NCBI GenBank assembly: GCA_964500695.1
Contig: CAZCNT010000002.1
Span: 1 to 56,713, forward strand
Direction: 5' to 3'
From: an uncultured Gammaproteobacteria bacterium
GTDB taxonomy: Bacteria > Patescibacteriota > Microgenomatia > UBA8517
Length of the DNA: 56,713 nt
A program made the translations under genes and the position numbers. The number at the start of each line of letters is the position of its first letter. Position 1 is the stretch's first letter. Positions 104 to 26,376 of the stretch are shown here, in pieces. The notes under the pieces are model-generated. The model did no database searches, was not told the DNA's origin, and saw only the letters and a program-made list of their open reading frames with translations.

Positions 104-1560
104 ATTGTTTTATCCCCCTTCGCGAATACCCCGGGCTTAAAGCCTCTGTGGGTAAGCGAAGAGGCCTCGCTTCGGAGGGATTCCGCTCCTGACGAAGCTT
201 GGGAGAAGATACCCCGACCGTTAGGTTGGGGGGCTTCATTCCTAACTAAGATAACAGCATACCCTATCAATAACCAGTAGATGGTTGCAAATTTAGACGC
301 CTCAAAAACGTCTATGAAAATTGCCGTTAAAAAAGTGCCAACCACTGCGCCAATTATTCCCGCTATATAAGACGTTTCTAAAGTGTCAAAATCTTTCCTA
401 TTTTTAATAAACTTCCAGAAAACCTTACCTATTCGGCAAAATATTAAGCTAAAGGTCGCAAAACCCAAAAGGCCAATCTCTCCCAAAATCCTCAAATAGT
501 CATTATCTGTCGCCAAACCGATTGAAGAATACCCTGTTCCGAGCGCGGGATTTTTATAAAAAGCCATAATTGCCCTTGGCCACTCAACATACAATCTGAT
601 TGAGGTCGATCTATCCTCCGACACCAGGGTAATCGGCGAAACATCCGAAGAGGCCGCCATCACCTCTATCTTAAAAAATGAAGTATCGACAATCTTTAGT
701 AGCTGCTGATATCTTCCCAAAAAACTTGGAAAGGCCAAAACAATAAGTACGGCCGCGGTAAAAATTGCAAAAGTTGCTTTATATTTTTTAACCAATATTA
801 GTGAGATACATGAGGCCAAGACCCACGAGGCAAGTGAAACTCTGGAAAGTGATGCTCCCAAAAGCCAAAGACCGGGACCGATTGTTCCGAGTAGCCAAAA
901 CTTCAATTTCATTTTATCTGTCAGGAAAAAAAGTGTCGTGAAGATCGGTAAAACCAAGACAATGTATGATGCCAGGTCATAATGTCCCGCAAATGTCGAG
1001 TTAATATGCGCGCCAGGCGTCCATCTTAATGCTATCCCTTTTGAATATTCACTATTTTGCGTATCAACTACGGGAAAATTGTAAAATCTTTGTCCAAACC
1101 CATAAAGAAATATAACAACAGTAACTATCATCAAAATCTTTATATAATAATCTAAATTATTTCTTGCATCCTTATTGTTTAAAGCCAGAAGCGCAAAAAG
1201 CGGAACGGCGTACTCAATGCGTCTAAGAAAGTGTAATAAGGCTATCGACGGAGTTACTGTATGACTTATGAAAATACCGGACACTAAAGAGACGAGACCG
1301 ACACCAAAAAAAAGCAAGAAAGCAATAATTATCTTATCTTCCAAAAAACTTCTGAAGTTCTTAAAGATTTTAATCAGGGTGAAAATCCCCAAAATCAAAA
1401 TAACAAAATCTTCGGCTCTTATAGAAACATACGTTCCGGAAATGCGTATAAAAGGAAATTTCGGGTAAAGGCAAACAATAATCAAAACTGCCGCCAATAA
1501 ATATTTCGGAAAATTATTTAGCCAGTAAGGCGTTCTAAGCCAAGACAAATATTTTTGCAT
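100..1560 (-). CDS. Wzy / O-antigen-ligase-like polytopic membrane protein, C-terminally extended by repeat element copy A
   Basis: 486-aa ORF with many hydrophobic segments and a larger loop before the last TM helices, as in the O-antigen ligase/Wzy_C family. The last ~45 aa (..SQASSGAESLRSEASSLTHRG..) are encoded by the repeat at 109-246. The stop overlaps the next ATG. Confidence 0.6.
   Translation of the reverse strand: MQKYLSWLRTPYWLNNFPKYLLAAVLIIVCLYPKFPFIRISGTYVSIRAEDFVILILGIFTLIKIFKNFRSFLEDKIIIAFLLFFGVGLVSLVSGIFISHTVTPSIALLHFLRRIEYAVPLFALLALNNKDARNNLDYYIKILMIVTVVIFLYGFGQRFYNFPVVDTQNSEYSKGIALRWTPGAHINSTFAGHYDLASYIVLVLPIFTTLFFLTDKMKLKFWLLGTIGPGLWLLGASLSRVSLASWVLASCISLILVKKYKATFAIFTAAVLIVLAFPSFLGRYQQLLKIVDTSFFKIEVMAASSDVSPITLVSEDRSTSIRLYVEWPRAIMAFYKNPALGTGYSSIGLATDNDYLRILGEIGLLGFATFSLIFCRIGKVFWKFIKNRKDFDTLETSYIAGIIGAVVGTFLTAIFIDVFEASKFATIYWLLIGYAVILVRNEAPQPNGRGIFSQASSGAESLRSEASSLTHRGFKPGVFAKGDKTI
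109..246. repeat. GC-rich ~140-bp dispersed repeat, copy A (partner at 6357-6497)
   Basis: Direct alignment by eye with 6357-6497. Shared blocks: tttatcccccttcgcgaa, taccccgg, ggagggattccgctcc, gacgaagc, gggagaagataccccgac, aggttgggg, gcttcatt. Internal inverted pairs: cttcgc 118-123 / gcgaag 156-161, and gcttcg 169-174 / cgaagc 193-198. Confidence 0.85.
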
Positions 1561-2434: not shown

Positions 2435-2518
2435 ATTATATATGTGCGTATATTATATATGTGCGTATATTATATATGTGCGTATATTATATATGTGCGT
2501 ATTTTATAAATGTGTGTA
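2434..2518. repeat. 17-bp tandem repeat: 4 perfect units (tattatatatgtgcgta) plus 1 degenerate unit
   Basis: Units at 2434-2450, 2451-2467, 2468-2484 and 2485-2501 are identical. Unit 2502-2518 has diverged. On the gene (minus) strand each unit reads tacgcacatatataata and contains TATAAT. Confidence 0.95.
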
Positions 2519-3010
2519 TATTTTTCTAAACTCCATGTATAGCAAATATGTAAGTCCCAATGTTGCAGCTCCAACAACAAGGCGTATCCACATAGAGCTT
2601 TTAACAAACCTGACTATAACTTTTTGACGGTAATGTACGCCATTTATGTTAATTTCGTATTGGGCGTCTTCCGGTTCAAACCCGTTGATATAAATGCTTT
2701 CGCGAAACGGATGCACAATCTCCTGCAAAAACGTGCTTTTTGTCTGATCACGAATTACGTCTTGGGCATTTTCAGGAGGGTAGTTTAAAACTACTCCCCA
2801 CTTAAATTGGCTTCTATACCAATCCATCACCTCGGCTCTTGTCATGTCGGTATAGTAACCGCGTCTTAAGGGTGTTTCTGTGTCAGCGGGCTCGTCCGAT
2901 TGTAAGGATCCGGGAAGGGAGATAGGAAAATCGACATTGGGTAAACCGAGATATACAAGAAGAAAAATTCCAAATGCGATTAATGCGGCCCTGAATATAA
3001 TATCTTTCAT
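2504..3010 (-). CDS. Hypothetical bitopic membrane protein (TM helix at each end, ~110-aa soluble middle)
   Basis: 168-aa ORF in the operon, with a 1-nt stop/start overlap to the upstream gene. No family recognised. The last codons (RKIYTHL*) are encoded by the degenerate unit of the 17-bp repeat. Confidence 0.55.
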   Translation of the reverse strand: MKDIIFRAALIAFGIFLLVYLGLPNVDFPISLPGSLQSDEPADTETPLRRGYYTDMTRAEVMDWYRSQFKWGVVLNYPPENAQDVIRDQTKSTFLQEIVHPFRESIYINGFEPEDAQYEININGVHYRQKVIVRFVKSSMWIRLVVGAATLGLTYLLYMEFRKIYTHL

Positions 3011-4786: not shown

Positions 4787-5846
4787 TATAGACGTTCAAA
4801 GTCATTTTGGCCGTCTTTTCCCAAGAAAAATCTTTCACTCGGGCTATTCCCTTTTCAATTAATCCCTTGGGGCCATCAAGAGCCTTTTTAATGCCCTCTG
4901 CAATCGAATTTACATCGTATGGGTCAACGAGTACTGCAGCTCCTCCGGCGACTTCAGGCATCGAGGAGATATTGGACGTTACAACCGGCGTTCCGCAAGC
5001 GAACGCTTCCAAAATTGGCAAACCAAAACCTTCATAAAGCGATGCGTAAACCAAAGCTTTTGCTCCGGAATAAAGAGCAGGCATCTCATCCGCCGCTCCC
5101 CTGCCAATCATCCTGATATTTCTCGATTCTTTTACTGTCATGTATTTAGGTATTCCTACAAAAACGAGCTTTAGTTCTTTTCCTGTCGAAGCGTGTTCAA
5201 AAGCTTTAATGGTTCTCTCTGTGTTCTTACGGGGGTCAACACCAACGCAAAGAATATAATCTCCAAAAATTTTATGTTTTCTTTTTACCTCCTCTATTCG
5301 CACTTCAGTTGGTCTTTTAAAAATACCCGAGACACTTTCTGGTGTTACCCTAATAATAGATTCCTTAAAACCCAACTTAACCAGATCTTTTTTGGTTGCC
5401 GTGGCAGGAACGAGAATTCTATCCGACTCTTTCTCTACCAATTTCAGTTTTGCCTTGTGAGCATCAACAATGTTTCGAATCATATCTCTCGGAAACAAGC
5501 TGGGATAAAGAAACGGTGCAAGATCGTGTACGGTAGTTACTTTAAAAGTAGAGCTAGGGGGCTCCGCCCAGTCTGAGGTATGAATCACGTCAACTTTTCC
5601 AATCAACTTCTCTATTGGTAAGGTATGAAATCTATTCCAGACAATATTCATCAGAACTGGCGGGATTGGAAAGACTTTTGTTTGGGGAAAAATCTTCAAA
5701 ATGTCACTTTTTCTACGAAAAGCTCCAGCAAAAAGGATGTATTCGTTTTCTTTATCAATCCTAAGTAGGTTTTTGACTAGCTCGATTGTGTACTGGGAAA
5801 CCCCTGTACCATAGACTATTTGGCTGACGTCAATTGCGATTTTCAT
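4770..5846 (-). CDS. GT4 family (GT-B) glycosyltransferase
   Basis: EGFGLPILEAFACGTPVVTSNISSMPEVAGGAAVLVDP. I prefer ATG 5846 (MKIAIDVSQ..), which forms an ATGA overlap with the stop of the upstream gene, over the track start at 5861. Confidence 0.9.
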   Translation of the reverse strand: MKIAIDVSQIVYGTGVSQYTIELVKNLLRIDKENEYILFAGAFRRKSDILKIFPQTKVFPIPPVLMNIVWNRFHTLPIEKLIGKVDVIHTSDWAEPPSSTFKVTTVHDLAPFLYPSLFPRDMIRNIVDAHKAKLKLVEKESDRILVPATATKKDLVKLGFKESIIRVTPESVSGIFKRPTEVRIEEVKRKHKIFGDYILCVGVDPRKNTERTIKAFEHASTGKELKLVFVGIPKYMTVKESRNIRMIGRGAADEMPALYSGAKALVYASLYEGFGLPILEAFACGTPVVTSNISSMPEVAGGAAVLVDPYDVNSIAEGIKKALDGPKGLIEKGIARVKDFSWEKTAKMTLNVYNEARK

Positions 5847-7261
5847 TTGGTATATTTCCAAAAGACTACTCCGTTAAAATTGTATTCCGAGGCCTTATTA
5901 TAGCCTAATGCCTCCACATTTTTCCTTGCAGAGTCTCCTGAATCAAATATCTCCCATACATACCTTGATAACCAGATATCTTTATCCTTCTGTGATATTT
6001 GAGAAGTATTGATTATCTGCTCTCCTTTTCCATAATAAATAAGTGCTTCTTTTTGCGTAGCCGCAGGAAATACTATTTTGTCTTCTCCGATTGCAGACGC
6101 AGCTCCTCTCCAATCTTCCCTCTGAAATCTGGGAGCTATCAAATAGTACATTGTACTTATTAAATTAACGCCCAAAACTAAACACAAAAATAGTTTTCTG
6201 TGCTTTCCCAAATTCCCAATCGCCTTGGCTATCAAAATATAAAATGCCGGAAGAACAAAAAGAAACCTAAAATAAGAAAGCGTTGGAATTTTAAGACTAA
6301 CTATTATTCCAATAAGAATCGGGGTAATTAACCACGCCCACAAAAGCTTAGAGTCCTTTATCCCCCTTCGCGAAATACCCCGGACGTAAGCCCGCGGGTG
6401 TAGCGAAGTGGTTTCGTTTCGGAGGGATTCCGCTCCCGACGAAGCGCTGGGAGAAGATACCCCGACTATAAGGTTGGGGAGCTTCATTGCCCTAAACAAC
6501 AAATACCCAAAGAGTGAAGAAATTAAACCAACCAAAACTGCGTAAAGCGTTTTATCATCAAAACTGATCCTACCTATCATAAACTTAACCGGAATCAGGA
6601 GGGTATTCTTAAAAGTCGCCATTCCCAATAACTGCAACCAAGAAGTCTTTACTGCCGATCCCACCACAAGTTGCTTTATAAAAATTGGCAACCAAATAAT
6701 AAAGGTAACGGCTAACGGAACGTGACTAAATGTCAATTTTTTCCTATCGTTCCAACCTGTAATCCAAAAAACAGGAATAATAAATAGTGAAACATAGTCG
6801 GTCATACCTAACAAAAGTAAAATTACAGAAAAATAAATCCACTTTTTCTCCAAAAATAAATAAACCAGGAAGCCTACCAAAAATGCTGCCAAACTATACA
6901 TTCTCGCCTCTTGAGAATAATATACGGCCAACCCTGACGTGGCCATTAGACTTGAAGAAATTAGCCCAACTCTCCGGTTAAACAGTTTCGCCGCTACTAA
7001 GTAAGTTGCATAAATTGTCGCTACCCCAAAAATAACGGATGGAATCCTAAGAGCCACCTCACCCATTCCAAATAATGCTACCCAACCTTTAAGAAACAAA
7101 TAATAAAGTGATGGATGGAAATCTCCGGGTAGAAATTTTGAAAAAATGTCCGCTACCGACATTTTTGCAACCAAAGCACTCGTTGCTTCATCCAGCCAGA
7201 GGGATTGATTAATTGAAATGAGTCGAAAGATAAATCCAAAAAATATAATTAAGTAAATCAT
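5843..7261 (-). CDS. GT-C fold glycosyltransferase (GT39/ArnT-PMT-like) carrying repeat copy B in-frame
   Basis: N-terminal TM helix followed by the SLWLDEATS first-loop Asp-Glu motif, then multiple TM helices. Residues ..SSPSASSGAESLRNETTSLHPRAYVRGISRRGIKD.. are encoded by 6357-6497. Confidence 0.8.
   Translation of the reverse strand: MIYLIIFFGFIFRLISINQSLWLDEATSALVAKMSVADIFSKFLPGDFHPSLYYLFLKGWVALFGMGEVALRIPSVIFGVATIYATYLVAAKLFNRRVGLISSSLMATSGLAVYYSQEARMYSLAAFLVGFLVYLFLEKKWIYFSVILLLLGMTDYVSLFIIPVFWITGWNDRKKLTFSHVPLAVTFIIWLPIFIKQLVVGSAVKTSWLQLLGMATFKNTLLIPVKFMIGRISFDDKTLYAVLVGLISSLFGYLLFRAMKLPNLIVGVSSPSASSGAESLRNETTSLHPRAYVRGISRRGIKDSKLLWAWLITPILIGIIVSLKIPTLSYFRFLFVLPAFYILIAKAIGNLGKHRKLFLCLVLGVNLISTMYYLIAPRFQREDWRGAASAIGEDKIVFPAATQKEALIYYGKGEQIINTSQISQKDKDIWLSRYVWEIFDSGDSARKNVEALGYNKASEYNFNGVVFWKYTK
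6357..6497. repeat. GC-rich ~140-bp dispersed repeat, copy B (partner at 109-246)
   Basis: Aligned by eye with copy A. The inverted pairs are conserved: cttcgc 6366-6371 / gcgaag 6403-6408, and gtttcg 6416-6421 / cgaagc 6440-6445. Confidence 0.85.
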
Positions 7262-24571: not shown

Positions 24572-26376
24572 TGAAAGCTATTAAAGTCGGCAATAAAGAA
24601 ATAGGCGAAGCTTCTCCAACTTATGTTATAGCAGAAGCCGGGGTCAATCATAACGGAGATGTCGATTTAGCCAAAAGACATATCAGAGAAGCCTGGTTGT
24701 CAGGGGCGGATGCAATAAAATTCCAAATCTACAAAGCAGATAAACTGGTCACGAGGACCGCTCCTATCTATTGGAAAGTTGGAAATGATGAGGGTAAAAC
24801 TCAATACGATGTATTTTCTAAAATCCACAATTTTCCAATCGAGTTTTATAAAAAATGTATAGATTATGCCAATAAAATCGGAATTACTTTTTTCTGTACT
24901 CCGTTTGATTTAGATGCTGTTGACGTAATGGAAGAGATAGGAGTCAAACTTTATAAAGTTGCCTCCGGAGACATCACCTATCACCAACTTCTTAAGAAAA
25001 TTGCACAAACAGGAAAGCCAATTGTCCTTTCCACCGGAGCTTCAACTCTGGGAGAGATCGAAGAAGCCGTAAATATTATTGAGAAAGAGAATAATAGTCA
25101 AATTATCCTCCTTCACTGCACCCTAGCCTATCCAACTCCCCAAAAAGATATTAACCTTAACATGATTCCCACTCTGGCAAAACTTTTTCCTGACTACCCT
25201 ATTGGCCTATCTGACCATACCTTTAGCCCTCTGACCCCCGCGCTTTCTGTAATGGTGGGGGCTAAAGTTATTGAAAAACACTTTACGGTAGACAAAACTC
25301 TGGAAGGAAGCTCCGATCATAAACTTGGAGTAGACCCATACCAATTAAAATGTTTGGTGGAAAGCATCAGACTCGCCGAAGCATCTCTCGGGGGGGGTAT
25401 GAAAAGGCCGGAGGATGCCGAGAAACCAGCTTTAATGATGGCCAGAAGAAGTTTAGTTTCCACTCAAAACATAAAAAAAGGGGAAAAAATCACTAAACAA
25501 ATGCTCACCGCAAAAAGACCCGGAACCGGAATTCAACCAAAATTGATGGAGGAAATTATCGGTCTAACCTCTAAAAAAGATATTAAGGAGGATTCTATTT
25601 TTACATGGAACATGGTTAAAGACCCAAAAATTGATGTCATTATTCAGGCCAGAATGGGTTCTGTCAGATTTCCGGGAAAAACACTTAAAAAAATAAAAGA
25701 TAAAACACTATTGGAAAGAGTAATCGACAGGGCAAATAAGATTAGAGGCATATCGGAAATTATTGTGGCAACAACAAACAGAAGAAATGATGAAGCGATT
25801 GTCGACCATTGCAAAAAACTGGGAGTTTCATATTACGTTGGTAGTGAAACCGACGTCCTTAACAGACTGGTCAAGGCTTCCCAAGAACACTCATCCGATA
25901 TTGTTATCAGATTAACGGCAGATAACCCTTTTTTGGAACCAAGTGAGATAGATTCCTTAATTCAAAAACATCTAAAAAATGAAAACGATTACACCCTGTC
26001 TTTTGGTTATCCGCTCGGCTCTTCTGGAGAGGTTTTTGGTGTAGAAGGTTTGATCAAAGTTAGCAATCTCACTAAAGATAAACTTTCCCACGAACACCCC
26101 GGAGTGTATTTTCTTAATCACCCCGAAGAATTTAAAATAGAAGCAGATAAGGCACCCAAAAAAAGAGATTTCCCTGAAATAAGACTTACGATAGATGTAC
26201 CCAAAGACTTTAAAACCGCCGAAAATATAATAGATAAACTGGGTGAAAATTTTACAATCGATGACATTATTGCTCTTTACAGAAAAAACAATAAATTGTT
26301 TACAAACCGTAAAGTCGAGCAAGAAAAACCCAGCATGGCGTTTAAAAAAATTTTCAGTGGGGAAAACCCTTTTTAA
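24571..26376 (+). CDS. Fusion protein: nonulosonic-acid synthase (NeuB/PseI/SpsE-like, with SAF domain) plus CMP-sugar cytidylyltransferase (SpsF/PseF-like)
   Basis: Residues 1-345: YVIAEAGVNHNGDVDLAKRHI..GADAIKFQ..LHCTLAYPTP..SDHT, followed by a SAF-like segment (..KKGEKITKQMLTAKRPGTGI). Residues ~350-601: IIQARMGSVRFPGKTLKKI..TADNPF (CTP_transf_3-type). Confidence 0.85.
   Translation: MKAIKVGNKEIGEASPTYVIAEAGVNHNGDVDLAKRHIREAWLSGADAIKFQIYKADKLVTRTAPIYWKVGNDEGKTQYDVFSKIHNFPIEFYKKCIDYANKIGITFFCTPFDLDAVDVMEEIGVKLYKVASGDITYHQLLKKIAQTGKPIVLSTGASTLGEIEEAVNIIEKENNSQIILLHCTLAYPTPQKDINLNMIPTLAKLFPDYPIGLSDHTFSPLTPALSVMVGAKVIEKHFTVDKTLEGSSDHKLGVDPYQLKCLVESIRLAEASLGGGMKRPEDAEKPALMMARRSLVSTQNIKKGEKITKQMLTAKRPGTGIQPKLMEEIIGLTSKKDIKEDSIFTWNMVKDPKIDVIIQARMGSVRFPGKTLKKIKDKTLLERVIDRANKIRGISEIIVATTNRRNDEAIVDHCKKLGVSYYVGSETDVLNRLVKASQEHSSDIVIRLTADNPFLEPSEIDSLIQKHLKNENDYTLSFGYPLGSSGEVFGVEGLIKVSNLTKDKLSHEHPGVYFLNHPEEFKIEADKAPKKRDFPEIRLTIDVPKDFKTAENIIDKLGENFTIDDIIALYRKNNKLFTNRKVEQEKPSMAFKKIFSGENPF

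Follow-up and report, generated by a model that had tools for sequence, protein, structure and literature searches.

The locus raises a simple question: what is the GC-rich repeat found inside two neighbouring membrane-protein genes in the stretch of DNA analysed here (the window, 56,713 nt), and how can it reside there with both reading frames still open? One copy (copy B) lies within a gene for a GT-C glycosyltransferase, and the other (copy A) at the very end of a Wzy-like gene. We find that the repeat belongs to an undescribed family of the Microgenomates, within the Candidate Phyla Radiation (CPR), which joins in-frame residence in genes, as in Rickettsia palindromic elements (RPEs), to an insertion signature like that of IS200/IS605 transposons. 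The best overall explanation, to which we assign a probability of roughly 0.75, is a small non-autonomous mobile element with such a signature that is tolerated in genes. The copies, their target motifs and their hosts are located as follows.

6362..6487, plus strand: copy B, an insert of 126 nt, CCCCCTTCGCG...GGGGAGCTTCAT; 140 bits with the covariance model
Residues 259-300 (M259 to G300), read from the minus strand: copy B as translated by its host, MKLPNLIVGVSSPSASSGAESLRNETTSLHPRAYVRGISRRG
6358..6361, plus strand: TTAT 5′ of copy B, a target motif present before insertion, in the role of an IS200/IS605 transposon-adjacent motif (TAM); codon for I301
114..239, plus strand: copy A, 126 nt, oriented as copy B; 122 bits with the covariance model
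42 residues, read from the minus strand: copy A as translated by its host, EAPQPNG...FAKGD, near the Wzy-like C-terminus
110..113, plus strand: TTAT 5′ of copy A, target motif; the upstream T-run is one T longer than in strain L135
5843..7261, minus strand: gene hosting copy B, for a polytopic GT-C (PMT_2/GT39-like) glycosyltransferase of 472 aa
100..1560, minus strand: gene hosting copy A, for a Wzy_C/O-antigen-ligase-like membrane protein of 486 aa; Pfam Wzy_C 2.9e-10

The clearest evidence for insertion is a pair of related contigs outside the window, L023 (5754-7025) and L100 (element at 2083-2215), in which the element occupies two different positions of the same Sua5/TsaE fusion gene and each contig is empty at the site filled in the other. 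In both comparisons the empty site has the form flank-TTAT|flank and the filled site flank-TTAT[CCCCC...CTTCAT]flank: L100 reads ...accatgtttTTAT[CCCCC...GCTTCAT]tctcaacc where L023 has ...accatgtttTTATcctcaatc, and the reciprocal pair opposes a filled ...gccagtTTAT[...]gctttccg to an empty ...gcaagtTTATgctttcca. These are independent in-frame insertions into one housekeeping gene. The site of copy A, compared with L156 and P0122, likewise keeps its TTAT and has no duplication. At the GT-C gene, L135 and L035, whose contigs match the window at about 89-93% identity along several kb, have an empty site and are exactly 126 nt shorter, which shows by strain comparison that the 126 nt are inserted DNA; here too TTAT is kept and nothing is duplicated. 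In 31/31 copies recovered without seeding on the left end, TTAT stands 5′ of the element, itself preceded by a T in 22 of the 31 (often giving TTTAT). On the other side, conservation ends abruptly after ...CTTCAT, with (T)TCAT as the right end. At the level of sequence, then, insertion is shown to take place immediately 3′ of a pre-existing TTAT, with no target-site duplication.

In the window itself, exactly two matches to a 26-nt repeat core are present, at 173-198 and 6420-6445, with 0 occurrences expected from 100 shuffles. In a repeat search and a pairwise alignment, the similar stretch measures about 132 nt (109-240 against 6357-6488); copies A and B share their orientation, are approximately 85-90% identical, differ by several 1-nt indels and both measure 129 nt from TAT to CAT. 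Their GC content of 60%, compared with about 30-45% in most of the flanking sequence, makes the composition of the element foreign to its surroundings. In contigs from four groundwater metagenome runs, matches to the window begin or end at 6357 and at 6488/6489, and word depth in the same runs climbs from about 36 to values of up to 660 within 6357-6488. These runs contain the contig of the window at 99%. This rise, together with the contig limits, indicates that the element is multi-copy in those communities and defines its limits independently. The initial annotation had placed copy B at 6357-6497; the contig limits agree with the left boundary and move the right one, the true end being 6487/6488. 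Since contigs end at the repeat, the element also breaks metagenome assemblies. Copy B is retained in L034, in L123 and in all four DNA runs examined; no joint skipping it was present in those four runs, and no empty allele with identical flanks was found in the metagenome contigs. The covariance-model scan of the window returned no copies beyond A and B. A look-alike pair of end motifs near 25103/25821 was set aside as a chance match within a coding region.

The ends of the element bear on a first alternative, a classical cut-and-paste MITE (a miniature transposable element with inverted repeats) moved by a DDE transposase with a 2-nt AT (or TA) target duplication. All copies have ..T-AT at their left border and ..C-AT at their right border, and an AT duplication is compatible with the filled and empty pairs. 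However, terminal inverted repeats are absent, the left end TTATCCCCCTTCGC being unrelated to the reverse complement of the right end ATGAAGCTCCC. The two Ts before AT are invariant (31/31), which argues for a recognition motif of 4-5 nt rather than a 2-nt duplication, and no DDE transposase with these ends was seen in the search for longer elements or in the clustering of flanking genes. We therefore regard a classical MITE as improbable.

The family extends well beyond the window. The exact central 19-mer was found at 33 loci in bacterial and archaeal contigs taken at one genome per species; three of them are chance matches in high-GC genomes and 30 are full copies, nearly all from Woese-, Davies-, Levy- and Roizmanbacteria and other Microgenomates metagenome-assembled genomes (MAGs). 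Seven copies reside in a single MAG, VMGE01, and four in the closed Woesebacteria chromosome CP066686.1. A second scan, of metagenome contigs, used the two end motifs only and was not seeded on the centre; it yielded at least 119 loci. Among the 121 matches listed, 83 measure 132 nt from TAT to CAT, 12 measure 129 and 5 measure 126, and the central hairpin, no part of the search pattern, lies within two mismatches of the consensus in 104. In all, about 150 copies were found in Microgenomates genomes and groundwater metagenomes, the metagenome share being a lower bound. L151 and L122, which fit the end pattern, proved to be unrelated high-GC sequences and were discarded. No copy was found in viral contigs. 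A protein search with the 45-mer encoded by the element was limited by its word index to two candidates and is unusable as a census. The sequence of the element was not found in the literature searched, nor was anything relevant on CPR repeats. Several contigs carrying this Microgenomates-type element (L004, L005, L009, L010, L015-L017, L021, L027 and L030) were deposited as "uncultured Gammaproteobacteria" MAGs; that label is probably wrong.

The element has no coding capacity of its own. It adds a net 126 or 129 nt that start with CCCCC and end with CTTCAT, and in context its ends read TTAT-CCCCCTTCGC... on the left and ...GAGCTTCAT on the right. It folds into three GC-rich hairpin domains, with a short closing helix (TCCC/GGGA) around the first two; the minimum-free-energy z-scores of the window copies are -3.8 and -4.3. 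The parts of copy B are as follows.

6364..6411, plus strand: hairpin domain 1; outer stem CTTCGC/GCGAAG invariant, apical stem variable with a GTAA-type loop and covariation (helices 2-3)
6415..6446, plus strand: central hairpin, TTTCGGAGGGATTCCGCTCCCGACGAAGC; nearly invariant in the family
6453..6485, plus strand: hairpin domain 3, GAAG..CCCCGAC TATA GGTTGGGG..CTTC; covariation in helix 7
6484-6487, plus strand: right-end motif TCAT; the right boundary is sharp

Hairpins 1 and 3 are alike (CCnCGnGC-GTAA-GCnCGnGG, interrupted by a mismatch or a bulge), so that an imperfect palindrome lies near each end. Their apical stems vary between copies with the pairing kept: in 29 copies, 34 cells had changed on both sides against 9.4 expected (0/500 shuffles). 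A second set of 86 distinct copies, drawn from the independent scan, gave 139 against 39 expected (again 0/500 shuffles), and slid controls fell to 40-54% paired. The central hairpin, with the consensus GCTTCGGAGGGATTyCGCTCCCGACGAAGC, hardly varies, and neither do the outer stems; per pair of the central hairpin, 78-84 of the 86 distinct copies are identical in this set, which had not been seeded on that hairpin. In L005 (4745-4915), which is 39 nt longer than the modal copy, hairpin 1 has a nested segment in its GTAA loop, and so does hairpin 3 in L115 (1221-1361). The two segments are similar (CCTTCG..CTCAGGA.GGTGAGCG.AGTCG.ACCAT), and each looks like a second, smaller insert inside the element.

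Such a structure could also mean that the element is primarily an RNA gene or module, with its dispersal and its copies in genes being secondary and its hairpins kept by selection on RNA: either an omega-RNA-like scaffold for a TnpB/IscB-type nuclease, borne by a palindrome-associated transposable element (PATE), or an antisense or regulatory RNA. The almost invariant central hairpin, evident even in the set not seeded on it, would fit this proposal, as would loops that are mostly GTAA, GTGA and GCAA (GNRA-like) on the TTAT...TCAT strand and the better folding of the window copies on that same strand. PATEs have, moreover, been reported often to encode omega-RNAs, with TnpB acting in trans (PMC10055086). 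Against it, Rfam 15 gave no match at the gathering score over the whole window, nor at E <= 10 over 6300-6550, and no TnpB- or IscB-like open reading frame (ORF) was seen nearby when about 900 kb of flanking DNA were searched crudely, by motifs and clustering. The covariation is equally well explained by palindromic DNA hairpins. An asymmetry between G-U and A-C wobbles (29:13 in 29 copies) became non-significant in the larger set (79:60 in 86 copies, p = 0.13), and for this reason a claim of strand-specific structure was dropped. The hairpins could thus be DNA palindromes on either strand, or RNA; a primarily RNA function is in our estimate unlikely. No likelier is a bolder version in which the central and right-end hairpins would serve as an omega-RNA-like guide or a trans-acting scaffold for some yet unrecognised CPR nuclease or transposase, in a family selected for its 3n length and four open frames to colonise coding sequence. 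If true, it would provide a second, mechanistically tractable case of the "selfish DNA in genes" of Rickettsia. A hammerhead-like CUGANGA in copy A was rejected, most copies carrying CCGACGA or CCTACGA at that position.

Residence inside genes was assessed in 124 non-redundant copies with enough flank, a copy being counted as in-ORF when it is spanned by an ORF that stays open for at least 40 codons on each of its two sides. Thirty-five copies (28%) are in-ORF. Their length is a multiple of three in 34 of the 35, compared with 70 of the 89 remaining copies (Fisher p = 0.013), and they are stop-free in the frame used. These data show a filter by survivorship that favours lengths of 3n and open frames. 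The in-ORF copies are antisense in 25 cases and sense in 10, and they are read in four frames (NEAP...FAKGDK, MKLP...SRRGIK, YPPS...RELH and LSPFA...GAS). Frame switches occur within the element between subfamilies, the central hairpin being read as RRERNPSEA, SSGAESLR or VGSGIPPKR. On average 3.07 of the six frames are stop-free per copy, against 1.59 in dinucleotide shuffles; four of the six are usually open in the family, a state (at least four open) reached in only about 3% of shuffles. With a modal length of 3n and usually four open frames, insertions into genes often neither shift nor stop the host frame. Hosts include conserved proteins such as UvrA, where the element lies in the inter-module linker, GatB, Sua5/TsaE, VanW-like, FemAB and PMT_2.

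The two window copies illustrate this at close range. The translation of copy A is ..NEAPQPNGRGIFSQASSGAESLRSEASSLTHRGFKPGVFAKGDKTI* and that of copy B ..MKLPNLIVGVSSPSASSGAESLRNETTSLHPRAYVRGISRRGIKD..; as the initial annotation had noticed, ASSGAESLR is identical in both hosts and both ends are read in different frames. Its statement that the element is stop-free in at least two frames on the gene strand is likewise confirmed, two of the three frames being open in each copy. It had also proposed that small indels, cccaagcttcg against cccagcgcttcg and gcgaatacccc against gcgaaatacccc, restored the host frame. These are present and offset each other, further indels between A and B lie in hairpin 1, and the codon phase in which the element is entered differs between the two hosts. 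However, the same variants (CGAAGC-TTGGG against CGAAGCGCTGGG, GAATACC against GAAATACC) are common to many other copies, including the intergenic L007. The supposed compensating indels are therefore family polymorphisms and need not be later repairs, so the idea of frame repair after insertion is not sustained.

That nine residues are identical in two host proteins could in principle reflect a genuine protein module common to two membrane proteins, or an assembly artefact. The rest of the segment, however, is read in different frames, and elsewhere the element is found in four frames and two orientations and often between genes. Homologues lack the segment, which is modelled as disordered (see below), and its presence in the independent assemblies L034 and L123 and in four sequencing runs speaks against an artefact. 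Both proposals are effectively refuted. Across four frames and two orientations, in unrelated genes or intergenic, it is the nucleotide sequence and the hairpins that are conserved and not the peptide, which, judged by these comparisons, is a by-product of a nucleotide-level element passing through coding sequence.

The host of copy B was identified as a GT-C glycosyltransferase in the initial annotation, and this assignment is well supported: Pfam PMT_2 matches the ORF at 5843-7261 above cut-off (6.4e-08), and Foldseek on the AlphaFold2 (AF2) model returns STT3, ArnT, AglB, ALG12 and Pmt4 at a probability of 1.00, pointing to a GT-C fold. The WLDEAT motif, the N-terminal acidic motif of the first loop, is invariant in homologues. 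The best 120 of 2192 homologues are 370-461 aa long, with the exception of one 472-aa protein 96% identical to that of the window, and in their alignment the segment M259-G300 is absent from all others. Alignment thus identifies it as an insertion, and none of the distant homologues carries an equivalent peptide.

Structure models with and without the insert agree with this picture. The model of the window protein has a predicted template modelling score (pTM) of 0.77; residues 261-301 have a predicted local distance difference test (pLDDT) value below 50 (about 30 in the insert), residues 260-289 are without secondary structure, and the transmembrane helices on either side, 237-259 and 290-324, are predicted with confidence except close to the insert. 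In the model of P0002, a homologue without the insert (pTM 0.82), a single residue links the corresponding helices, 230-251 and 253-273, at a pLDDT of 86-92. Comparison of the two models indicates that the element turned a tight bend between helices into a loop of about 43 residues. That this bend is cytoplasmic is suggested by its basic flanks (KAR-KDSK in homologues) and by counting helices backwards from the soluble domain at the C-terminus. Very probably the enzyme is not destroyed by a read-through loop. Frame preservation and retention in several strains lead us to infer that the loop is translated and harmless. The view of the initial annotation, selfish DNA tolerated in a loop rather than a protein domain, is in keeping with the homologues that lack the segment, the dispersal of the element and the disordered insert between helices. 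Predicted read-through peptides are, for example, FRAMKLPNLIVGVSSPSASSGAESLR, which spans the junction, and AMKLPNLIVGVSSPSASSGAESLR. Of six metatranscriptome runs listed for the same studies, four were compared with the locus and gave no contig matching the gene or the element, a result uninformative on expression.

The segment could instead be removed or bypassed during expression, by intron-like or IStron-like splicing or by translational bypass, leaving a mature enzyme without it. IS605-family elements that splice out of host mRNAs, the IStrons, have been described (10.1101/2023.11.20.567912). Excision, however, would place no constraint on length or stops, yet 34 of the 35 copies within ORFs have a 3n length and no stop in the frame of their host, and 19 of the 89 other copies are not 3n. 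Rfam contains no group I or II intron or ribozyme match to the element, 126 nt is far under the size of a self-splicing intron, and intragenic copies occur in both orientations. Removal is accordingly very improbable in our judgement.

The GT-C gene is also a strain mosaic. The window equals L034 (10001-11419) over the first ~1080 nt and is 83-87% identical thereafter; with L035 (3536-4807) it shares 55-82% identity in the 5′ part and 100% over the last ~250 nt. This pattern indicates recombination within the gene.

That the element is a mobile, non-autonomous DNA insertion is, in our view, highly likely. How it moves can be stated with less assurance. IS200/IS605 elements have neither inverted repeats nor target duplications, integrate 3′ of a specific tetra- or pentanucleotide and require a hairpin at each end (PMC7290912), and Geobacillus elements of this type have the TAMs TTTAT and TTCAT, with gene-less PATE derivatives mobilised in trans (PMC10055086). 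The absence of inverted repeats and of a duplication, the fixed 5′ motif, the related right-end motif and the end hairpins together suggest a PATE-like reading, and we lean slightly towards IS200/IS605-type mobilisation by a Y1 HUH transposase acting in trans. Such a transposase, encoded elsewhere, would move the element by single-strand "peel-and-paste" transposition, insert it 3′ of TTAT and leave a (T)TCAT right end and no duplication. Insertions into genes would often neither shift nor stop the host frame, and those at permissive places would survive. Copy B would have landed antisense in the tight turn between two transmembrane helices of the GT-C enzyme, to be read through as a 42-residue disordered loop, and copy A would be the same kind of event in the neighbouring Wzy-like gene, five codons before its stop.

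Several observations weigh against this mechanism. A 2-nt AT target duplication is formally indistinguishable from a TTAT target with no duplication. No Y1 transposase or TnpB-like ORF was detected by the crude search of the ~900 kb of flanks; screens of the flanks for HUH/Y and zinc-ribbon motifs gave zero candidates, and no longer element with the same ends was found. ORF clustering of the flanks, with the element-encoded peptide masked, recovered recurrent glycosyltransferases, MreB, an AAA ATPase, AbiEi-like and LAGLIDADG-like proteins, and no transposase. Orientation is only mildly biased, with 80 of 127 copies antisense to neighbouring genes (p = 0.004, the copies not being independent), and GC skew was uninformative on the replication-linked strand bias typical of IS200/IS605. 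The non-significant wobble asymmetry of the 86 copies gives no sign of a single-stranded intermediate. Finally, a transposase that reads end hairpins does not account for the near-invariant central one. Separately, six loci (L061 348-1038 and five others) have, close to the element, a 230-aa ORF that combines an N-terminal helix-turn-helix with a LAGLIDADG-like motif; no link between this ORF and the element was established.

Copy A is located not centrally in its Wzy-like host but five codons before the native stop of this Wzy_C protein. Homologues end in ..VRNKQYEQ*, strain L135 in ..VRN[EAPQ...AKGD]KQYEP*, and L156 has an empty site aligned at the same point. In the window an extra T at 100-113 (TTTTAT against TTTAT in L135) changes the last residues from KQYEP* to KTI* and also puts the stop TGA over the ATG of the gene downstream.

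1-84: next gene, PMT_2-like, running off the window; its ATG is overlapped by the Wzy-like stop TGA

With AAGGGGGAT the element ends about 9 nt upstream of this ATG, and this end resembles a ribosome-binding site. At the copy A locus (106-170 against L135 9494-9632), the flanks and the 3′ two-thirds of the element are identical between strains and the apices of hairpin 1 are entirely different, that of the window being like L030 and that of L135 like L023; this suggests patch conversion between dispersed copies. Elsewhere in the region, the window has at 2433-2522 a 17-nt unit, ATATTATATATGTGCGT, repeated head to tail (four overlapping 39-nt copies at 17-nt spacing) within a spacer of 20% GC between the minus-strand ORFs 1535-2434 and 2504-3010. 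The first 11 kb of the window, and the matching stretch of L034, form a dense cluster for cell-envelope glycosylation that comprises several GT-C/PMT_2 genes, Wzy-like, GT2 and GT4 genes, a radical SAM enzyme and a methyltransferase.

Beyond this locus, inserts of 42-43 residues inflate and confuse the annotation, alignment and structure prediction of CPR proteins, among them UvrA, GatB, Sua5/TsaE and many glycosyltransferases. In-frame selfish repeats in genes are best known from Rickettsia, and the same behaviour is met here in the unrelated and very gene-dense CPR/Microgenomates. The insertion signature, pointing as it does to HUH single-strand transposition, supplies a concrete and testable hypothesis for the spread of the family.

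Among known systems, RPEs come closest in behaviour. Each of them (Ogata et al. 2000, as summarised in PMC10969869) encodes a conserved peptide and lies in frame in genes. According to that account, RPEs are structured repeats of about 100-150 bp found in frame in unrelated genes with the host ORF kept, and are taken as selfish DNA tolerated in permissive parts of proteins, all of which holds for the element. The two differ in host phylum, appear unrelated in sequence, and differ in what is conserved: one peptide per RPE family according to that account, against four frames, both orientations and no conserved peptide in the element. The element itself shows a clear TTAT/TCAT signature without duplication.

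PATEs, such as those of ISGst in Geobacillus stearothermophilus (TAM TTTAT/TTCAT) and of IS608 in H. pylori, share with the element the lack of terminal inverted repeats and duplication, insertion 3′ of a fixed tetra- or pentanucleotide, a related right-end motif, an imperfect hairpin per end and small size. They depend on a transposase supplied in trans, as the element presumably does. The element differs in its extra invariant central hairpin and in that the crude flank search identified no cognate TnpA/TnpB; its modal 3n length, four open frames and 28% residence in ORFs are not described for PATEs in PMC7290912 and PMC10055086. IStrons, which combine an IS605-family element with a group I intron, are also of IS200/IS605 type and lie within genes without inactivating them. 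They escape, however, by RNA splicing, whereas the element has no intron or ribozyme signature and appears to be read through (3n, open frames). It would thus represent a third way for IS200/IS605-like DNA to persist, within genes by being 3n and stop-free, next to an intergenic position and to the splicing route of IStrons.

Intragenic ERIC, BOX and Correia-type MITEs are likewise small structured repeats with occasional in-frame fusions (PMC10969869). MITEs have terminal inverted repeats and target-site duplications, whereas the element has no inverted repeats and no duplication beyond a possible AT. Repetitive extragenic palindromes (REPs) and their REPIN pairs, with RAYT as their Y1 HUH transposase, are GC-rich and palindromic like the element and have a mover encoded elsewhere, as is presumed for it. 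REPs are single hairpins of 20-40 nt with a GTAG motif, and they are extragenic. The element, in contrast, is a three-hairpin unit of 126-129 nt that targets TTAT and is frequently intragenic.

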